NCBI GenBank assembly: GCA_002305995.1
Contig: DBRN01000011.1
Coordinates: forward strand, 93,628 to 157,627
Direction: 5' to 3'
DNA length: 64,000 bases
Origin: Atopobiaceae bacterium UBA1367
Lineage (GTDB): Bacteria > Actinomycetota > Coriobacteriia > Coriobacteriales > Atopobiaceae
The translations under genes were made by a program, and so were the position numbers. The notes under the pieces are model-generated. The model was given only the letters and a program-made list of their open reading frames with translations, was not told the origin of the DNA and did not search any database. The number at the start of each line of letters is the position of its first letter. Position 1 is the first letter of the stretch. Below, in pieces: positions 3,575-63,922 of this stretch.

Positions 3575-4483
3575 CTATGCGAAGGCCGCGCAGATCGCGT
3601 CCAGCAGCATCACGGCGAAGGTCTGCGCGTCGCCCGTGGTGAAGGTGCCGTCGTAGCCGAGGCCAAAGGGCAGCTCCAGGCGTACCAGCGGCGGCGTGCG
3701 GCGCGAGCTCTCCACGGCCGTGCGGATGCGTCGGGGGAGCGTGTCGATGTCGTCGGTGGTGAGGTTGGGCGTCTTGGACCTGCCCTCGAGCGGCGTGGTG
3801 GCGAGCACGAGCACCAGCTGGTCGCCCTCGCGCGACTGCTCGGTCTCGCTCACCAGGTCGAGCCCGTTCTTGTCGGTGGTCGCCGACGCGAGGTTCCAGA
3901 TGCGCCCAGCTATGTTGCGCGAGATGGGATCCTCGGCGGTCATCGAGATCTGCATGTGCTCGAGTACCCCGGCGGCGCGGGCGAAGCCCATGCCGCCCAT
4001 GGGATGGGGGCCGGCGGCGGGCTTGCCGTCCCACACATGGTGCAGGCGTTCGATGGCGTCGAAGGTGTCGGGGAAGGCCATGCCGTCGGCCAGCTGGCCC
4101 TGGCTCTCCTGGAACTGCTTGACGGCTGCCTCGGTGTACACGCCATAGTAGCCATCCGGCTCGCCGCACGAGAAGCCCAGGATGTTCAGGCACTTCTGCA
4201 GCTGTCGCACATCGGCTCCGTGGAAGTTGGGAAGGCGCAGGTAGAGGGTGCGATCACCCATGCGATACCCCTCGTCGACCAGGATCGACCACGTGGCGGT
4301 GTCCACCTCGGCACCCAGTGGGAGCCCGTGGTCGAGCCGGAAGCGCGCGACGGCCGTCGCCGTCGACGGGCCAAAGGTCTGCGCGAGGTGCTCCGCCTCG
4401 TCCGTCTCGTAGCCAAGCGTGGCAAGCCGCGCCTGGATGTCCTCGACTGCGGCGCCGGTCGCGCCTTCCTTGATAGGCCTCAT
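3575..4483 (-). CDS. peptidoglycan-binding (PG_binding_1-like) domain protein with an uncharacterised C-terminal domain
   Basis: Two tandem peptidoglycan-binding repeats (GATGAAVEDIQARLATLGY...TATAVARFRLDHGLP and GADVRQLQKCLNILGF...YGVYTEAAVKQFQESQGL). The start was set to MRPIKEG, preceded by GAGGAG; the upstream part of the track ORF overlaps the next gene. Confidence 0.75.
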   Translation of the reverse strand: MRPIKEGATGAAVEDIQARLATLGYETDEAEHLAQTFGPSTATAVARFRLDHGLPLGAEVDTATWSILVDEGYRMGDRTLYLRLPNFHGADVRQLQKCLNILGFSCGEPDGYYGVYTEAAVKQFQESQGQLADGMAFPDTFDAIERLHHVWDGKPAAGPHPMGGMGFARAAGVLEHMQISMTAEDPISRNIAGRIWNLASATTDKNGLDLVSETEQSREGDQLVLVLATTPLEGRSKTPNLTTDDIDTLPRRIRTAVESSRRTPPLVRLELPFGLGYDGTFTTGDAQTFAVMLLDAICAAFA

Positions 4484-23741: not shown

Positions 23742-24427
23742 ATGCTCGCCGCAGCGGGCGCGTCTGGTGGGGCCGCGACGACGACCCCGTCTGGTGGGGC
23801 CGCGACGACGACCCCGTCCGGCGCACGCCCGCGCATCAAGCTCTGCGGCATGTTCCGTGACGCCGACATCGATGCCGTAAACGATTCCCGACCGGACCTG
23901 TGCGGCTTCGTCGTCAGCTTCCCGCGCTCGCATCGGAGCGTCTCTCCCGAGCGGCTCGGGCGGCTGGTGGGGGCACTCGACGAGGCGATCGGTGCCGTCG
24001 GCGTCTTCGTGGACCAGCCGGAGGGGTTCGTGGCACAGGTGGCGAACGAGGTCGTCGACGTCGTCCAGCTGCACGGATCGGAGGACAACGCCTACATCGG
24101 GCGTCTCCGCGCGCTCACGGACGCCCCCATCGTGCAGGCCGTTCGCATGAGGTCCGCCCGCGATGCGTGTCGGGCGGCGCGCTCCGCCGCCGACCTCGTC
24201 CTCCTCGACAGCGGGTGGGGGACGGGCAGGCGCTTCGACTGGGCGCTCGTCGCAGGGGTGGCCAGGCCCTTCATGCTTGCGGGCGGGCTCTGCGCCGACA
24301 ACGTCGCCGAGGCCGTGCGCGCCTGCGCGCCCTGGGGCGTCGACATGAGCTCGGGACTCGAGACCGATGGGCTCAAGGACCCGGCACGGATCAGGGCTGC
24401 CGTCAGGGCAGCGAGAGGAGCCAGGTA

Positions 24428-31248: not shown

Positions 31249-31761
31249 ATGAGCGAGGAGAAGAGGCTCCCACGAGGCAGGCGCATGCTGCTGGCACTGA
31301 TCACGGCACTGGTCGTGAGCGTGGCGTTCGTGGGCATGACCATGGCGCGCAACAACTACGCCTCGTGGAACTGGGAGTTCTTTGCATGTGAGACCGGCGT
31401 GGCGGTGATCGCTGCGACATGTGGGTATCTCTGTGGATCCATGGACGAGCGCGGCGTGCGTTGGGCGGACGGCTACCTGGCATCCGACAACGGTGCGCTG
31501 CGCATCCTCCTGAGCAACCTCGTTCCCGCTGGGTTCTGTGCCGTGCTCATGACGCTGGCCCTCGCCGTGCTCAACGTCGCCTATGTGTCCACGGCCCTCT
31601 TCCATGAGGAGCCGTTGGGCATCCCCATGGGCATCCTCATGCGCTTTCTGGCCGACATACCCACCTGCCTCGTTCTTTGCCTGGCAGTGCGCCTAGCTGC
31701 GCTCGGCATTGTCAACAGGCACGCGAGGGGGTTGGAAGCCAAAGAGACGACGCGCCAATAG
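31249..31761 (+). CDS. hypothetical integral membrane protein
   Basis: About 170 aa from MSEEKRLPRG, with four predicted hydrophobic segments. The upstream part of the track ORF (from 30976) overlaps the preceding gene. Confidence 0.55.
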   Translation: MSEEKRLPRGRRMLLALITALVVSVAFVGMTMARNNYASWNWEFFACETGVAVIAATCGYLCGSMDERGVRWADGYLASDNGALRILLSNLVPAGFCAVLMTLALAVLNVAYVSTALFHEEPLGIPMGILMRFLADIPTCLVLCLAVRLAALGIVNRHARGLEAKETTRQ

Positions 31762-31999
31762 GGGGGATGCGCGTCGTCTCGAAGTGGGACTATGCCCGCA
31801 CTCCTTCCTGAGGGGGAGAGGGTCCCTCTGAAGAAGTTAACTATAGTTTACTATTTCTCCCACAGAATGCAAGAGCGTATGTAGGAAATCTGACAGGTCG
31901 TATCGAGGGGCACTGAAGGGGCGCGTAGGGCCAAGCGATGAGGGCTGCTCCATGGCCATCGCGTGAGGAGGCCCATCCTGTGATGGACTGAGACCCGCA

Positions 32000-32526
32000 T
32001 CGGACAGGAAATCGGGAAGCTGTGCGAAGTTGGGATGTGCGCCGGAAAGGGAAATGCCGACCTGTGCAGGGCCGGGGCCAAGGGCGGAAAGGAAAAGCCG
32101 GAGTTGTGCGAGGCCGGCCCCCCAGCCGGAAAGGGAAATCCCAAGTTGTGCGAGACGATGCTCAGCCTTGGAAAGAAAAATCCCAAGTTGTGCGGGGCCG
32201 GGGCCAGGGGCGGAAAGGTTTTCCTCGACTTTTGACCCCAGAGGGATCGCACAACTCAGGGTTTTCCTTTCCGCCAGCGGTGTGTCGTCCGCACAACTCA
32301 CGGATTTCCTTTCCACCATGGACTCCGGCCTCGCACAACTCAGGGTTTCCCTTTCCAGCATAAGCCAAGGTCCTGCACAACTCCGGCTTTTCCTTTCCGC
32401 CATGGGCCACGGCACCGCACAACTCGGGCTTTTCCTTTCCACCAGCGGTGTGTCGTCCGCACAACTCCGGCTTTTCCTTTCCGCCATGGGCCCCGACACC
32501 GCACAACTCGGGCTTTTCCTTTCCGG
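32000..32526. repeat. head-to-head arrays of a 42-bp repeat (6 + 7 units), locus 1
   Basis: GGAAAGG-N8-GAGTTGTGCG cores start at 32002, 32044, 32086, 32128, 32170 and 32212. The reverse-complement units (CGCACAACTC-N8-CCTTTCC) have CCTTTCC at 32266, 32308, 32350, 32392, 32434, 32476 and 32518. All spacings are exactly 42 bp. Confidence 0.92.
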
Positions 32527-32731
32527 TGGGGAGGCACAGCCTCCACAGCATGGCCTACACACAACCCAAGCTCTTCCCCTCCATCGTCTCCCGGGCATCT
32601 GGTACGGCGCAGTGGCAGCTTCGGGAGTCACGGCCCGCATGCCCTGCCACCGAGACGGACAGCCCTGCGGCAGGGCCGAGCCGCCAGAGGTCCTCGACGT
32701 GGCCCGCCACCGGCTGATCCTGTCAGGTCGT

Positions 32732-33463
32732 TCAGAAGTCCCGAGACTCGTAGATGCGCTCGGACAGCAGCATCGAAGCGCCGTAGACGGCCAATGCCAC
32801 GACAAGCGCACCGGCCATCAGCGGCAGGGGGGAGCCCAGCGCCCCCACGACAGACGAGACCGTCCCTGCCACGGTGCGCACCACCTCCCGCACCACCTCC
32901 CGGACGGGTTCGATCACAAGGAGCGTGCATGCCAGGAAGGGCAGCATGAAGTAGACGCGTGCGCGCGAGAGCCCTGTCTTGAAGAGGAGGGGCATCTCGA
33001 TCGCGAGGTAGAGGATACAGACCACCAGCACCAGGCCACTCAGGAGCACAGCCTCCCCCACGGGGACGAGGCCCGGCTGCCCATGCAGCACCATCGCGGC
33101 GGCGGCCCTCACGCACATGCCCGTCAGATTTGCGAGGACCTCGAGCATCACCACCCAGAGCAGCTGGGTGGCGTAGCGGGAGCGCACCACCAGGGAGCGG
33201 GTTATGGGCAGCGAGAGACGAACGCCCTCCCACCCCTCGCGCTCGTCGTTGCCAAAGAAGGTGAGGCAACCGTAGAATGCGAGCATGGTCACACACGTTG
33301 ACACGATGGTGCTGTGCACGTTGGTGGCTAGTGCGGTGGCGTCAGGCGCCGCCTTCGCGACGTTGCCCATGACTGCGATCAAGGGAAATGTCGCAACAAG
33401 CAGGAGATACCCCTTGGCGGCGCCCTTGAGGGTGCACCAATCCGAATACAGCAGTGACCTCAT
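32732..33463 (-). CDS. ABC-2-type transporter permease
   Basis: 243-aa polytopic membrane ORF directly following, and abutting, the ABC ATPase gene. Confidence 0.72.
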   Translation of the reverse strand: MRSLLYSDWCTLKGAAKGYLLLVATFPLIAVMGNVAKAAPDATALATNVHSTIVSTCVTMLAFYGCLTFFGNDEREGWEGVRLSLPITRSLVVRSRYATQLLWVVMLEVLANLTGMCVRAAAAMVLHGQPGLVPVGEAVLLSGLVLVVCILYLAIEMPLLFKTGLSRARVYFMLPFLACTLLVIEPVREVVREVVRTVAGTVSSVVGALGSPLPLMAGALVVALAVYGASMLLSERIYESRDF

Positions 33464-48779: not shown

Positions 48780-50309
48780 CTAGCAGACGTTCAGGAACTC
48801 GAAGCGGCCCATCTCGTAGGCGTAGGTCTCTGCGGCCTTGAAGGTGGATGTGACGTTGAGATCGGTGATCTCCTGAGGCCACCAGCGGGTGGACATGGTG
48901 TACTCGCCGCCGTTGACGTAGATCTCGATGGCCGAGGTATCGATGACCATGCGAACGTCCTCGAGCCTGCCGGCGGAGAGCTCGGCGAGCGGTAGGCGGC
49001 GCACGGTGCGGTAGCCACCGGCAATGCCCTTGAAGCTCAGCTCGACCATGTCGCCTATCACGGCGAGCTCGAGGTCGGCGTTGAGCAGGATGCGCCCCTC
49101 GCCCTCGATGCCCTTCAGGCGCACGTCGGCGGTGCCGTTGGCAAACGCGGCGCCGATGGCACCCTCGATGTCGAAGGCATCGTAGTCGGAGGTGCCCAGC
49201 TTGCCGTTGGAGTCCTTGGCTCCCTCGGCGGTGAAGTCGATGCGCGCGCCGCGCAGGGCGTCGTACTCCTCGCAGGGCCACTGGCAGATCCTGCCGGCGT
49301 CGTTGAGCGAGAGCTCGCGCAGCCAGGTGAGGGTGTGCAGCCACTCGTAGGTGGGCACCTGGTACTGCATCTCGATGTCGGGCAGGCCCATCCAGCCCAC
49401 CAGGATCTGGCGACCCCTCTCGTCGGTGAAGACCTGCGGCGCATAGAAGTCGAAGCCGTAGTCCAGCTCGACGAAGGTGTCCTCGTCGATGCAGCCGTAG
49501 GGGGCGGCGGCATCCATGAGCTCCCTGTCTCCGGAGAGCAGGTCGACGACCGTCCCCTCCACGGGAAAGTAGCCGCTGTTGAAGTTGTTCTGGAACTTGG
49601 TCAGGCGGCTGGGAACGCCCTGCGGGCACACGAAGAAGAACTCCCTGCCACCCAACGTGACGATATTGGGGCACTCCCACATGTAGCCGAAGGGCTTTCC
49701 GCTGATGGTGGTGCAGGATCCGGCGAGCTGCCAGTCGCTGACGCCATCGGGACTCTGGTAGAGGAGCATGGCGGGATGGTCGTCCATGGTGCGGGCGCCC
49801 AGCAGCATGTTCCAGGTGTCGTTCTGCCACCAGACCTTGGGGTCGCGCACATGGCAGCTGCAGTAGCTGGGATAGCCGTCGTTGCCCAGGACGAGCCTGC
49901 GGTCGGAGAAGGTGCGCCCGTCCTTGGAGATGACGAGCGTCTCGTTTGCCTGGCGGCCGTCGTAGTCGTAGTTGTGCTCGCCCGGCTCCAGCACGTTGCC
50001 GGTGTAGTAGCACCACATCTCGTCATCGCGCACCACGGCGGAGCCGGAGTAGGAGCCGTTCTTGTCGAGCTCCATCTCGGGAATGATGGCCCCGCGATGG
50101 AACTCCCAGCTGATCAGGTCGCGACTGGTCCAGTGGCCCCAGCCATGGCCGGGCCACGGCCAGCGCGGCGCGTACTGGTGGAAGATGTGGTACTCGCCCC
50201 TGAACTGGCAGAGGCCGTTGGGATCGGAGAGCCAGCCCACCGCGGTCTGCAGGTGAAAGCCAAGCCTCCAGTTGTGCTGACGGTAGTCGAGGTTGACGTG
50301 CATTTGCAT
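48780..50309 (-). CDS. scrB: sucrose-6-phosphate hydrolase (GH32)
   Basis: WLSDPNGLCQFRGEYHIFHQY (nucleophile NDPNG-type motif), RDPKV and WECP motifs. It is adjacent to the fructokinase and PTS genes. Confidence 0.88.
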   Translation of the reverse strand: MQMHVNLDYRQHNWRLGFHLQTAVGWLSDPNGLCQFRGEYHIFHQYAPRWPWPGHGWGHWTSRDLISWEFHRGAIIPEMELDKNGSYSGSAVVRDDEMWCYYTGNVLEPGEHNYDYDGRQANETLVISKDGRTFSDRRLVLGNDGYPSYCSCHVRDPKVWWQNDTWNMLLGARTMDDHPAMLLYQSPDGVSDWQLAGSCTTISGKPFGYMWECPNIVTLGGREFFFVCPQGVPSRLTKFQNNFNSGYFPVEGTVVDLLSGDRELMDAAAPYGCIDEDTFVELDYGFDFYAPQVFTDERGRQILVGWMGLPDIEMQYQVPTYEWLHTLTWLRELSLNDAGRICQWPCEEYDALRGARIDFTAEGAKDSNGKLGTSDYDAFDIEGAIGAAFANGTADVRLKGIEGEGRILLNADLELAVIGDMVELSFKGIAGGYRTVRRLPLAELSAGRLEDVRMVIDTSAIEIYVNGGEYTMSTRWWPQEITDLNVTSTFKAAETYAYEMGRFEFLNVC

Positions 50310-50384
50310 GGGTGGGACCTTCCCTTCTCTGCGGGCGATGAGAGGCCCCGCCGACCTGATGCGGGCGGGCGGGGCCACATGTGC

Positions 50385-56559: not shown

Positions 56560-58050
56560 TTAGCGCGTGATCGTCTCGTTCCAGCCGGGCAGGTCGAGCA
56601 CGGGCGCCTCGGCGGTGGCGTACATCTGCGCCATGGTGTCTGCCATGGGGTAGACGGTGCCCGTGGCCGACAGCGTGCATGCCACCCGCAGGTCTGCCGC
56701 CTCGGGGCAGAACCAGCGCGAGGCGAAGGTCTCGGCGCCTCCGTTGGCGAAGATCTCCACGACGGAGCCGTCGACCAGCACACGCAGGTCGTCCAGCCCG
56801 TCGAGGGGAATGGAGCGGCTCGTGCGTCCGGCGGACGATGCTTCGTCGAGGTAGCGGACGCCCAGACGTCCGTGCTCGTAGAACACCTGGAAGCTGCCGT
56901 CGAGCGTGAGCGCGCCCTCACCCTCGATGCCCGTGAGCACGATGTCGGCCATGCGCCCTGCGACGATCGTCTCGCCGCTCAGCGCCCGCCCGTCCCCACG
57001 TAGCCCCTCCAGCTCGGGCACGGGGACCTGGAGGATGCGCCCGTCGGGGCGGCGCGAGAGCAGGCGCGGCACCGTCGTGCAGTGCCACCACGCGAGCCCG
57101 TCGGGGACGGAGGTGTAGTGGTCGTCAAAGGTGCCCATCCACCCCACGAGGATGGTGCGACCGGCATCGTCCACGAAGGTCTGTGGGGCGTAGAAGTCGT
57201 GGCCGAAGTCCCACTGCACGAAGCCGCGCTCGTCAATGGTGTCGGTGTCGATCAGGCGCTGGCCCTCCGGCAGCTCGAAGTAGCCGGGCGTCCAGCGGTT
57301 GAACCAACGATCCCGCAGGCGCGGCAGGCCTTGCGGTGAGATGGCGAGGTACTCGCGACCATCGAGGCTCACCACGTTGGGGCACTCCCAGACGAAGCCA
57401 AAGGGGTACTCCGACTCGATGGCGTGGCTGAAGGTCCAGCTGATGCCGTCTTCGGAGTCGTACAGCAGGCACAGGCCGCGCGTGTCCTCGTGGCGCCCGC
57501 CCAGCAGCATGCGACGCCTGCCGTCCTGCTCCCAGACCTTGGGGTCGCGCACGTGACAGCTGCAGTATGCGGGGTAGTCGGCATTGCGCAGCAGCACCTG
57601 CTTGGGCCCAAGGCGCAGGGCGCCCGGAGGCCCGTCTGGGTCCGGCGTCGCCACGCAGGTGATCGTGTTCTGCTCCCGGCCCGCGTAGACGTAGTCGAAG
57701 TCCTTGGGGCTGTGCCCGGGCACGGGGTCAACCACGTTGCCGGTGTAGTAGAGGCGCAGGACGTCCTCGCCGGACGGCCCGGCGTCGCGCTCCACGAAGG
57801 CGCTGCCGCTGAACACGCCATGGCGATCTTCGGGGATCGACGGCTGGATGGGCACGCCCTCGTACCTCCAATGGACGAGGTCGGGGGAGCTGAAGAGCCC
57901 CCACGCCTTCTGGTCCACTGTGGGCCAGTCGTGATCGTACTGGTAGAAGACGTAGTAACGCCCGCGGAACTGGCACAGCCCGTTGGGGTCGTTGAGCCAG
58001 TTGCGCGGGGAACGCAGGTGAAAGCCGACCTCCCAGCTCCTGTTGGGCAT
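56560..58050 (-). CDS. GH32 beta-fructofuranosidase / sucrose-6-phosphate hydrolase paralogue
   Basis: WLNDPNGLCQFRGRYYVFYQY, RDPKV and WECPN motifs. The start MPNRSWE is preceded by GAGAGGAG. Confidence 0.88.
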   Translation of the reverse strand: MPNRSWEVGFHLRSPRNWLNDPNGLCQFRGRYYVFYQYDHDWPTVDQKAWGLFSSPDLVHWRYEGVPIQPSIPEDRHGVFSGSAFVERDAGPSGEDVLRLYYTGNVVDPVPGHSPKDFDYVYAGREQNTITCVATPDPDGPPGALRLGPKQVLLRNADYPAYCSCHVRDPKVWEQDGRRRMLLGGRHEDTRGLCLLYDSEDGISWTFSHAIESEYPFGFVWECPNVVSLDGREYLAISPQGLPRLRDRWFNRWTPGYFELPEGQRLIDTDTIDERGFVQWDFGHDFYAPQTFVDDAGRTILVGWMGTFDDHYTSVPDGLAWWHCTTVPRLLSRRPDGRILQVPVPELEGLRGDGRALSGETIVAGRMADIVLTGIEGEGALTLDGSFQVFYEHGRLGVRYLDEASSAGRTSRSIPLDGLDDLRVLVDGSVVEIFANGGAETFASRWFCPEAADLRVACTLSATGTVYPMADTMAQMYATAEAPVLDLPGWNETITR

Positions 58051-58135: not shown

Positions 58136-58241
58136 CGATTTGCTCGGGGAGCGGGGGAAGACCGTGCGATGGGATGTACCCTTCACGCCCGCTCGCGCGA
58201 ACTGCGATCCCCGCTGCCGGGTTGGCCCAACGTGTATATGG

Positions 58242-58720
58242 GGCGGGCGGAGAGGGCTCGACCGTGCGAGGGTGTGGCCGGTGACGGAAAGGGTTTTGCC
58301 GAGTTGTGCGGGGCGCGGGCCTCGGTCGGAAAGGGAATCGCCGAGTTGTGCGTGGTGGCTCCCCATGCCGGAAAGAAAAACGCCGAGTTGTGAGAGAGGA
58401 CGACCGCCCCTGGAAAGGAAAAGCCCGAGTTGTGCGCGCCGTACCTCCCTGCCGGAAAGGAAACACCCGAGTTGTGAGAGCCAGCGGGGTCACAACTCGA
58501 CAAAACCCTTTCCGCCACCGGCCACAAGATCGCACAACTCGACAAAACCCTTTCCGCCACGGGCCCAGACCCCGCACAACTCGGGGATTCCCTTTCCGGC
58601 TGAGGCCCGCGCCCCGCACAACTCGGGGATTCCCTTTCCGGCAGAGGCCCGCATCCCGCACAACTTGGGGTTTTCCTTTCCATCGTTGACCCAGCTGCCT
58701 CACAAGTTGGGAAAGAGACC
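58242..58720. repeat. head-to-head arrays of the 42-bp repeat (5-6 + 5-6 units), locus 2
   Basis: GGAAAGG/GGAAAGA starts at 58286, 58328, 58370, 58412 and 58454. CCTTTCC starts at 58507, 58549, 58591, 58633 and 58675. All spacings are 42 bp. Degenerate terminal units occur near 58246 and 58698. Confidence 0.92.
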
Positions 58721-58914
58721 GTCGCCCATCTCCCGGCACCCATCGGCATCCCTCACATGTCGCATCATCCCGCCACTACCTATGCGGCACCCCCGAGCTT
58801 GCCGACGGAAACCCGCGGAGACCACCGATGGGCCTGCCTTCCAGGTCGCTTCGCGAGACGAGTCTGTGGGACCTCCTCGATATGAGGCGCCCGACGGGTG
58901 CGCCCAACAGGGGA

Positions 58915-59006
58915 GGGGCATTCCTCCCTGATGAGGGGTCCCCCGCAACCACGAGAGCGGCGGCAATCGTCGAGAGTGGGGCGTCCCTACCTGATGAGGG
59001 GTCCCC
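58915..59006. repeat. 29-nt direct repeat x2, 63-bp period, proximal copy covering a gene's stop codon
   Basis: GGGGCATTCCTCCCTGATGAGGGGTCCCC (58915-58943) and GGGGCGTCCCTACCTGATGAGGGGTCCCC (58978-59006) are 26/29 identical. The second encodes the ..GRGPLIR* end of the ACT-MBL gene. Confidence 0.8.
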
Positions 59007-60396
59007 TGCCGGGGCAGATCGTGTACCCGTCGAGCTTGTGGCGAAGCTGCCCGCGAATGCGGCCGGCGAGATCGGGCTTGGTGTCGTAGCTGGCGCGCAG
59101 GTGTGGTTGCAGGTCGAGGAAGGTGCGCTGCAGGTCCGTGAGCCCTGTGTCGTTGACGAGCAGGTCGCCGGTGAAGGCAACCCGCAGCTCGGGGCAGGTG
59201 ATGATGGTCTCGCCGCGCGCATGGCCCCCAGCCCCCTCGATGATCCTGAGGTTCCAGTCGCCGAAGCGCATGCTGCCGATGGTCTCGAGGGGGTCGTCGC
59301 CACTGCGGCCACCTATGACGACACAGCGCCCAAGCTGCGGCGTCTCATAGCGCGAGAGGATCTTGGTGAGCGTGTTGTAGGGGGCGTGCATGGGATTGCG
59401 CTCGCGATAGCTCGCCCGGCCCTTGTGCTCGTTGACGAAGTTCGAGTAGCAGGTGCGGTTGAGGTAGACGGTGTCGAAGAGGCGCAGGAGCCCTGCGGCA
59501 TCGATGTCGGGGTGGGTGATGAGCGCGCTCTTGCGCCTGAAGGAGAAGTCGCCGAAGAGGTCGTCGAGCAGCGTGTGCATCTCGTTCTCGAAGCACCCAA
59601 GGCCGCAGTCGACGAACAGCAGCGCGCCGTAGTACTCCAGGATGTAGGTGTTGTCGCCAAAGGGCGGCTCGATGACGTGCATGGTGAGCCTGTCCGCGAG
59701 CCTGTGGCGCGTGACCGTGGCCTTGAAGTCGCGACCGCTGTTCTCGACGATGAGTTCGGCGAAGCGCTGGATCCGGCCGAAGACCTCCTTCGGTGACTCG
59801 TCGCGCTTGTCGACCACCTGCATGACCTTGTTGGCCTGTGCGAGCGCGCCGTTCGTCTCCTCCTGCGAGAGGCCGAGCGTCTCACGCAGCGTGTTGGCAA
59901 AGGTGACGTAGAAGATGGTGCTGTCGAGGAGTCGATCGGTCGCCTCGTAGTCGAGGACGCGCACCTCGCAGATCTTGGAGAGGTCATCGAGCAGGCCCTT
60001 GATCTCGGCGGTGTTCTCGACGAGCAGGCCCATCTTGAAGTTCTGGTAGGGGGTGCCGTTCTCCTGCGAGTTGATGTAGGGGATGTTGACCTCGTGGCGC
60101 TTGATGACCTCGAGCGTGGGAAGCAGCGCGCCGGGAACGTCGGGCAGGACGAGCTCGATGAGGATGATCTGCCGCATGCCCGGGTCATCCACGAGGTACT
60201 CGATGTCCTTGAGGCGGTCGGAGATGAGCTCCTGCTGCTCCTCGGTGGCGTCGACCTCGATGAGCAGCGTCCGCGTGTCGACCGCGCGGTTGTAGTTGAC
60301 GCGGACGATGTTGCCGCCGCACTCGGCGATGGCCTTGCTGGCGGTGAGGAAGGCGCCAGCCTGGTCGGGCATGTTGGTGATGTAGGTCTTGCGCAT
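58987..60396 (-). CDS. ACT-ACT-MBL-fold hydrolase fusion protein
   Basis: Two N-terminal ACT-like units (ITNMPDQAGAFLTASKAIAECGGNIVRV... and ELVLPDVPGALLPTLEVIKRHEVNI...) are followed by an MBL-like domain (LITHPDIDAAG, GGHARGE). The start MRKTYI was chosen. Confidence 0.75.
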   Translation of the reverse strand: MRKTYITNMPDQAGAFLTASKAIAECGGNIVRVNYNRAVDTRTLLIEVDATEEQQELISDRLKDIEYLVDDPGMRQIILIELVLPDVPGALLPTLEVIKRHEVNIPYINSQENGTPYQNFKMGLLVENTAEIKGLLDDLSKICEVRVLDYEATDRLLDSTIFYVTFANTLRETLGLSQEETNGALAQANKVMQVVDKRDESPKEVFGRIQRFAELIVENSGRDFKATVTRHRLADRLTMHVIEPPFGDNTYILEYYGALLFVDCGLGCFENEMHTLLDDLFGDFSFRRKSALITHPDIDAAGLLRLFDTVYLNRTCYSNFVNEHKGRASYRERNPMHAPYNTLTKILSRYETPQLGRCVVIGGRSGDDPLETIGSMRFGDWNLRIIEGAGGHARGETIITCPELRVAFTGDLLVNDTGLTDLQRTFLDLQPHLRASYDTKPDLAGRIRGQLRHKLDGYTICPGRGPLIR

Positions 60397-60635: not shown

Positions 60636-60648
60636 TCTCACCGGCCTC

Positions 60649-60722
60649 GCGACAGGTGGGGTCCTGCTGCCGAGACGGGCGGCCTTGCGACAGGTGGGGT
60701 CTTGCCGCCGAGACGGGTGGCC
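60649..60722. repeat. ~38-bp tandem repeat x2 (each built of two ~19-bp sub-repeats)
   Basis: GCGACAGGTGGGGTCCTGCTGCCGAGACGGGCGGCCT and GCGACAGGTGGGGTCTTGCCGCCGAGACGGGTGGCCT lie immediately downstream of the lipoprotein gene. Confidence 0.8.
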
Positions 60723-60743
60723 TCCCGAGAGGGTTCCCTCGCG

Positions 60744-63787: not shown

Positions 63788-63922
63788 GCCTCCTGCCGCA
63801 CGCGACGCGGCCAGCCGCTCCCGTTAAGGAAACCGAAAGGTCTGGCGCGAGTTCGGGAAAGGTGCACCCCCTATCCTGAGACCATGCACGACCCGAATTG
63901 GTTCCCAACAAGGAGGTACACC

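Follow-up and report, generated by a model that had tools for sequence, protein, structure and literature searches.

The window, by which we mean the whole 64,000-nucleotide stretch analyzed here, has a G+C content of 66.6% and encodes proteins whose closest counterparts, in rumen and gut Atopobiaceae and Coriobacteriia MAGs, reach no more than 83% amino-acid identity, so that the species itself falls outside the 185,579 GTDB representatives. Between a GH32 sucrose-6-phosphate hydrolase/fructosidase gene and a gene that joins an ACT domain to a metallo-beta-lactamase fold (ACT-MBL) lies an array of 42-bp repeats, called locus 2 here, whose units run in one direction up to a short centre and in the opposite direction beyond it (Table 1). 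As the sequence-only reading of this DNA had placed it, the array is upstream of the GH32 gene and downstream of the ACT-MBL gene, both on the minus strand; the GH32 start is 236 bp from the first clear unit, and the ACT-MBL stop codon is about 264 bp from the outer degenerate unit. A Pfam scan from 27.5 to 62 kb, which takes in the neighbours of locus 2, those of a second array (locus 1) and the 26-kb interval that separates them, returned ordinary sugar-metabolism, transport and housekeeping genes and no transposase, integrase, par, rep or cas gene. The GC skew stays positive over the full 64 kb. We rejected a replication origin or terminus (a DnaA-box cluster or a Ter fork trap) on two grounds, the lack of a GC-skew switch in the window and the existence of at least 15 loci of the same family.

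Other features were noted beside these genes. Near their 5' ends the GH32 gene and a paralogue at 48780-50378 have 100 bp in common at 77% identity (57936-58033 and 50171-50269), and several Logan contigs end within the first GH32 gene, not at the array. A 38-bp tandem repeat of 2.4 copies (CGGCCTCGCGACAGGTGGGGTCCTGCCGCCGAGACGGG) occupies 60642-60732, between a Cthe_2159-domain gene and the ACT-MBL gene, and is found in other strains too with a period of 38/39 bp (L001:9673-9756). Farther away, a perfect 27-bp tandem duplication (23761-23818, 2.1 copies, 100% match) sits just upstream of a gene that starts at 23900. Between locus 1 and the membrane ORF next to it is a stretch that is locally A+T rich (31825-31900, GAAGAAGTTAACTATAGTTTACTATTTCTCCCACAGAATGC) in a genome of 66.6% G+C; it could represent an operator or promoter, or else the point where a small RNA starts.

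Reading of the sequence and a pattern search together bore out the structure, coordinates and 42-bp period that had been described for locus 2. Plus-strand cores of the form GGAAAG-N9-RAGTTGTG lie at 58286, 58328, 58370, 58412 and 58454, and the same search placed minus-strand cores at 58491, 58533, 58575, 58617 and 58659, with CCTTTCC starting at 58507, 58549, 58591, 58633 and 58675. Spacing within each arm is 42 bp throughout, a period that TRF and a repeat finder also recovered. The innermost opposed cores start 37 bp apart on either side of the 14-nt centre, and both inner cores end in GTGA in place of GTGCG. One side of the centre carries a special unit in which a T-tract replaces the A-tract, and in the window strain only, this T-tract unit has a second copy at 58533-58555. 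When the motif was searched for with up to two mismatches across the whole 64-kb window, 24 matches were observed against 0.33 expected from shuffles, a count reached in 0 of 100 shuffles, and 23 of the 24 fell inside locus 1 and locus 2.

Table 1. Features of locus 2, its neighbours and locus 1, followed by the layout of the six loci recovered as DNA (unit numbers are given as forward + reverse arm)
Feature	Position	Strand	Remarks
GH32 sucrose-6-phosphate hydrolase/fructosidase gene	56560..58050	-	RBS precedes ATG at 58050
Strain-variable 81-bp flank segment beside locus 2	58176..58256		Not part of the repeat family; present in window, absent from L026 and L027
Locus 2, degenerate outermost forward unit	58244..58266	+	CGGGCGGAGAGGGCTCGACCGTG; in 42-bp phase with the array
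Locus 2, forward arm	58286..58476	+	Five 42-bp units, cores GGAAAG-N9-GAGTTGTG
Locus 2, centre	58477..58490	no strand	14 nt (AGAGCCAGCGGGGT); 37-bp centre type
Locus 2, special innermost T-tract unit	58491..58513	-	GGAAAGGGTTTTGTCGAGTTGTG followed by ACCCC
Locus 2, reverse arm	58491..58681	-	Five 42-bp units; four copies in other strains
Locus 2, degenerate outermost reverse unit	58701..58723	-	GACGGTCTCTTTCCCAACTTGTG
ACT-MBL gene	58987..60396	-	
Locus 1, forward arm	32002..32234	+	Six units, outer two degenerate
Locus 1, innermost T-tract unit	32212-32234	+	GGAAAGGTTTTCCTCGACTTTTG followed by ACCCC
Locus 1, reverse arm	32250..32524	-	Seven units, 84-bp higher-order repeat
Locus 1, whole			6 + 7 units; centre 38 bp; between membrane-ORF and ABC-2 genes
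Locus 2, whole			5 + 5 units; centre 37 bp; between ACT-MBL and GH32 genes
L164			6 + 4 units; centre 38 bp; between metG and argD
L165			5-6 + 5 units; centre 38 bp; between fba and GH1
L166 (L166/L167/L168)			5 + 5 units; centre 37 bp; between arsC and GH4
L169			6 + 3 units; centre 37 bp; upstream of GmrSD gene cluster

The recurrence of the array at 32000-32585 was also confirmed by pattern search: locus 1 consists of 6 + 7 units at 32002-32524, between the 3' ends of a convergent pair, a small membrane ORF (31249-31761, plus strand) and an ABC-2 permease gene (32732-33463, minus strand). Several claims about how the two loci relate to each other were not supported. They had been read as direct copies, yet the T-tract unit is on the plus strand at locus 1 (32212) but on the minus strand at locus 2 (58491), which puts the two loci in opposite orientations, and their centres belong to different subtypes, of 38 and 37 bp, respectively. 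The reported resemblance of their flanks was not found either, as BLAST homology is confined to the arrays, and comparisons of three and of five loci revealed no common flank or terminus. Units had been thought more alike within a locus than between loci; in fact, cores are 0.81 identical within and 0.80 between, spacers 0.40 and 0.39, and only a few adjacent units are duplicates. Nor was there support for the 26-kb interval being special because it is bracketed: both loci belong to a family whose 15 or more loci occupy unrelated sites, and no inversion, deletion or amplification of it was seen, all six assemblies that span either locus being collinear with the window.

The family came into view through gene-calling errors. 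Spurious ORFs are annotated across the arrays, and their 14-amino-acid repeats, such as ERKxPSCA, AQLGxFLS and PHNSGFSFP, served as search handles. Queries with single spurious-ORF proteins returned 15 such sequences, while a concatenated six-frame protein query had no matches. Four of the sequences led to new loci with DNA, and nine others have only 32 to 43% identity to the fetched loci and so represent further loci; one sequence at about 50% identity (P0010) may be the version of the L165 locus that a relative or a diverged strain has. The family thus comprises six loci recovered as DNA and at least nine more inferred from spurious ORFs with 14-amino-acid repeats. Multiple dispersed copies in one genome, a mark of MITEs, are seen here as several loci in the same sample or genome: ERZ2647956 holds L164 and L167, and ERZ926433 holds L165 and L166.

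All six loci have one plan, in which four to seven forward 42-bp units are followed by an asymmetric centre and three to seven reverse units. In 6/6, one and only one of the two innermost units has a T-tract for the A-tract, and ACC or ATCC follows it. This unit reads GGAAAGrTTTTyCTCGACTTyTG, then ACC, in loci with a 38-bp centre, and GGAAAGGrTTTTGyCGAGTTGTG, then AyC, in loci with a 37-bp centre. A single plan with a one-sided T-tract unit in six loci indicates that the whole head-to-head module, asymmetric centre included, is the unit of descent. Each unit has a bipartite motif of about 25 bp, made of cGGAAAGG, about eight variable nucleotides of which the first are A/T rich, and GAGTTGTGCG, and behind the motif comes a spacer of essentially random sequence and fixed length, about 17 nt after the CG. 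No DNA-binding, transposase, par or rep gene is a constant neighbour of the six loci. An integrated element with integrase (Arm-DNA-bind_4/Phage_integrase), NikA-like, AAA_25 and DUF4379 proteins was noted beside a GMP-synthase gene at L164:15876-20522, 5 to 10 kb from the L164 array and without an evident link to the arrays.

The same region was recovered by exact-protein look-ups from independent assemblies of strains about 99% identical. ENA contigs built with MEGAHIT and with SPAdes and an NCBI assembly span locus 2 (L026, L027 and L170), and the flanks of the window are kept in all six assemblies that span either array. Logan short-read contigs enter the array and repeatedly end inside its first or second unit. 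This breaking at the arrays could speak for an assembly artefact, but that candidate was rejected because the arrays are spanned by independent MEGAHIT, SPAdes and NCBI assemblies.

The suggestion that the arrays behave as VNTRs proved right, with three locus 2 alleles among strains that are about 99% identical and the loss of an arm at locus 1. At locus 2 the window has 5 + 5 units, L026 and L027 have 5 + 4, and L170 has a different 5 + 4 arrangement. One GGAATCCCC unit is gone from L026 and L027, an exact 42-bp deletion, and one T-tract unit is gone from L170. At locus 1, L034 is identical to the window and L040 differs by one SNP, while L041 lacks the whole seven-unit reverse arm through a 310-bp block deletion between the outer degenerate unit and the innermost unit, the rest of its sequence being identical. 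The 81-bp flank segment of Table 1 contains CAACGTGTATATGGGG; it is placed between the array and the start of GH32 and might influence the promoter region of this gene. The strain ERZ2647912 carries a further difference (L170:15716-17330), a 1.6-kb insertion at the point that corresponds to 63913-63915 of the window, between murT and a DUF975 gene; it encodes an IS110-family transposase (DEDD_Tnp_IS110/Transposase_20) and is absent from the window strain. This insertion in one strain is the sole transposase found near the arrays and has no link to them.

The arrays could also be read as a neutral palindromic minisatellite, in which tandem duplications of selfish or accidental nature underwent a single inversion and were copied around by recombination, without any sequence-specific function. 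Degenerate outer units, as expected under unequal crossing-over, adjacent duplicate units together with the 84-bp higher-order repeat, copy numbers that change between strains and the loss of an arm without obvious harm are all in keeping with it. However, three observations fit such a repeat poorly. First, across 52 units from five loci, the 19-nt spacers are saturated, at 40% identity in pairwise comparison against the 31% expected from base composition, yet the 23-nt cores are 80% identical, and of the 50 spacings between neighbouring units of an arm, counted in six loci, 47 measure exactly 42 bp. Second, strains differ more in the locus 2 array (94.6% identity, a 5.4% difference) than in its flanks (99.0 to 99.2% identity), but the differences avoid the motif: only 3 of 37 fall in GGAAAG or RAGTTGTG, which make up 36% of positions (binomial P = 1.3e-4, or P = 1.5e-3 once an ambiguous cluster is removed). 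Third, one asymmetric centre has been kept across six unrelated loci. We therefore regard the neutral minisatellite as quite improbable. Because cores are so much better conserved than spacers, spacing is almost always 42 bp and SNPs avoid the motif, both the motif and its helical phase appear to be maintained by selection. The conservation of the motif could owe something to gene conversion between units instead of selection for binding.

The sequence-only reading had named an assembly artefact, a known repeat family and coding sequence as ways in which it could be wrong, and none of these was borne out, as assemblies span the arrays, database searches gave no match and codon-position GC is flat. 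ORFs do cross the arrays, and gene callers annotate them, but their GC content is 0.57 to 0.69 with little regard to codon position, compared to a GC3 of 0.84 to 0.93 in neighbouring real genes, and they have no Pfam matches; a coding repeat was rejected for these reasons. A conserved repeat of about 25 bp followed by a variable spacer of about 17 bp has a superficial look of CRISPR. A CRISPR array, however, has near-identical direct repeats of 23-50 bp that all run one way, whereas here nine interior positions of the 25-bp motif vary between neighbouring units, the spacers are about 17 to 19 nt rather than about 26 to 72 bp, each locus has two opposed arms, and no cas domain was found among the scanned window genes or the genes called around the six loci. 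The CRISPR-like, coding and artefact readings are effectively refuted.

Inverted arrays can also be read as structured nucleic acid, either a long hairpin RNA, such as an sRNA precursor or a bidirectional terminator, or a DNA cruciform. The 486 nt of locus 2 fold far better than shuffled sequence (-152 against -98 kcal/mol, z = -10), three units have weak terminator-like stems (CCCCG-CACAACT-CGGGG, then a T-rich run), and a gene 3' end borders each of the six loci on at least one side. The good fold, however, follows trivially from the inversion of the arrays, and the best pairing in it is out of register. Mirrored spacers are no more complementary than the background (0.43 versus 0.46 for nonmirrored ones), and a unit-level stem around AGTTGTG pairs 59.1% of cells, compared to 58.7% in shuffles, without covariation. 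Spacer complementarity and stem covariation thus gave no sign of a selected hairpin, and a hairpin or RNA function was rejected on that basis. Rfam had no match at locus 2 at the gathering score, and its subthreshold matches were generic long-hairpin miRNA precursor models only, for example at 38 bits against a threshold of 168. A structural role of this sort is very unlikely.

The reading that we prefer, at a probability of about 0.5, is that locus 2 is one copy of a dispersed, noncoding and species-restricted element composed of predicted protein-binding arrays, plausibly derived from mobile DNA and now probably evolving in place. A period of 42 bp would correspond to four turns of B-DNA and would set all motifs on one face of the helix. 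The arrays would then be putative cooperative sites for a sequence-specific DNA-binding protein encoded elsewhere, and the two arms, once assembled, would face each other over the specialized centre. Cooperative binding along each arm would be expected to conserve the motif and the length of the spacers while leaving their sequence free. As to origin, mobile DNA seems the most plausible source, in the form of a foldback-like or end-only derivative of an element whose ends would have held multiple transposase-binding sites, and such an origin would explain the dispersal of the family. Current evolution would proceed in place, with units gained and lost by unequal recombination or slippage and an arm occasionally deleted, in line with the behaviour expected of long inverted repeats.

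Set against a mobile origin, the loci examined offered no conserved termini, target-site duplications, empty site or autonomous copy. No terminus is common to five loci, where outermost units are degenerate or end abruptly, and no direct repeat flanks the loci. The conserved terminal inverted repeats that mark the boundaries of a MITE are likewise missing, the arms being inverted overall but their outermost units degenerate. At the orthologous position, relatives that are about 80% identical in amino-acid sequence have a different set of genes.

One possibility is that the binding arrays have a host function and no mobile origin, with a chromosomal protein forming a fixed nucleoprotein structure at gene 3' ends. 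Such a structure could be a bidirectional roadblock to transcription or replication, an insulator, or a nucleoid-organizing or gyrase-type site, by analogy to BIMEs and to barriers of the Ter and RTS1 type. The six loci all adjoin at least one gene 3' end, with two between convergent genes and none between divergent ones, motif and phase are constrained, and opposed polar arrays recall Tus-Ter, RTP-Ter and RTS1, which are opposed polar barrier sites. But the absence of loci between divergent genes (0/6) is not significant, with a chance of about 0.18, GC skew shows neither terminus nor origin in the window, and a single replichore has the element in both orientations, as locus 1 and locus 2 are mutually inverted. 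The motif is also absent from the relatives searched, which would be surprising for a site with a core role in the host, unless its protein is lineage specific. On balance, we think a purely host-derived array unlikely. A further idea, possible although we would give it clearly less than even odds, is that the loci are cis sites of a new sequence-specific DNA-binding system in the Coriobacteriia. This would be either a foldback-type transposon with arms made of transposase sites or a host or domesticated protein that polymerizes along phased sites on both sides of the asymmetric nucleation centre, building dispersed roadblock or architectural complexes.

Among described systems, the closest analogues are the pneumococcal BOX element and BrickBuilt. 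BOX elements have the structure boxA-(boxB)n-boxC, with a subunit of about 45 bp whose number varies between strains. Both BOX and the family described here are dispersed, intergenic, lineage restricted and modular, with a variable count of subunits of similar size. BOX, however, is one direct boxB run between distinct A and C modules that pair, whereas here two opposed arrays of a single unit type flank an asymmetric centre without distinct terminal modules. BrickBuilt, a MITE with an internal minisatellite that occurs in 19 copies in Porphyromonas gingivalis, is built from 23-nt direct repeats without spacers and has leader and tail subunits and small inverted ends (PMC4596501). Like BrickBuilt, the present family is species specific and always intergenic, has a tandem core of variable copy number and is present in a comparable number of copies (at least 15 here). 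Its 42-bp units of motif and random spacer and its head-to-head arms are different, and neither leader nor tail nor terminal inverted ends could be found.

Other parallels concern arrays of protein-binding sites. Eukaryotic Foldback (FB) elements and end-only derivatives of Mu, Tn7 and CACTA/En-Spm have inverted arms of tandem units that resemble binding sites. As in those elements, the arms here are long, inverted and variable, composed of short tandem units and separated by little or no loop, but neither a transposase partner nor a conserved outermost terminus nor a target-site duplication came to light, and the outermost site, best conserved in transposons, is the most degenerate in these arrays. 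Plasmid centromere and iteron arrays, such as F sopC (12 x 43 bp), R1 parC (2 x 5 iterons) and the P1 and F inc iterons, which occur in both orientations, similarly consist of regularly phased repeats with a conserved predicted binding motif. The sopC period nearly equals 42 bp, and the parC and inc arrays form two clusters. Those arrays, though, lie beside par or rep genes at one or a few sites on their replicon, whereas we found at least 15 loci among ordinary chromosomal neighbours, with no par or rep gene and no match in 72,556 plasmids. The REP/BIME sequences of E. coli are dispersed, extragenic and often at gene 3' ends and bind gyrase and IHF. They resemble the present arrays in being dispersed and extragenic, with a variable number of units in both orientations. 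REP units, however, are individually palindromic and alternate in orientation, whereas these units are asymmetric, lack stem covariation and change orientation once.

Searches outside the source species gave little. An exact two-unit pattern had no matches in 185,579 species genomes (the GTDB representatives, among which the source species is absent) or in JGI metagenomes, and a looser pattern had none in viral contigs, so the family is not widespread. No similarity to the plasmid or phage collections was found. A sequence-only model of the unit (R1) found nothing in 335 kb from related MAGs at E values up to 10. In 214 kb of DNA from the same species, all 96 of its matches fell within arrays and none was an isolated site, and the regulon of a single-site transcription factor was rejected for this lack of single sites outside arrays. 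Nothing relevant was found in the literature on the motif, under the accession numbers or on repeats in Atopobiaceae. Judged from these comparisons, the family appears to be previously undescribed and species restricted, with an architecture that seems unmatched by any described bacterial family that we found; in kind, it is a dispersed intergenic repeat element of gut and rumen Atopobiaceae.

Two other kinds of array were noted. A metagenome query for three copies of AGTTGTG at 42-bp spacing returned unrelated repeats only. On the metagenome contig MTKX01032399.1 (L054:3840-4160), at least seven 42-bp tandem units each contain the 20-bp palindrome AGTTGTGCACGTGCACAACT, which has GAGTTGTGC in common with the motif studied here and occurs in extra copies at 3665-3705. 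The layout resembles that of a centromere- or operator-type array, and no par or rep Pfam matches were found in the neighbouring ORFs. In related Atopobiaceae MAGs, another intergenic family (L016:2193-2402, L016:14415-14654 and L015:10060-10189) is placed immediately behind the stop codons of genes and consists of 52-bp tandem units that each form an internal hairpin (GTCGGGAGTGT...ACACTCCCGAC). One of these arrays, on L015, lies directly downstream of the ACT-MBL orthologue, and its contig ends in the array. The Atopobiaceae may in general have lineage-specific tandem arrays between their genes.

Dispersed bacterial repeats such as REP/BIME, BOX and MITEs have repeatedly been handles for host proteins, mobile-element enzymes, strain typing and rearrangement. 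In practical terms, the arrays described here break short-read assemblies and are misannotated as hypothetical proteins, and they are ready-made VNTR markers for strain tracking. Their signature is an unusual one, with saturated spacers, a conserved bipartite motif, an exact four-turn period and an asymmetric centre at unrelated loci, and this combination points to a specific protein partner, so far not sought, in a poorly studied lineage of the gut and rumen.
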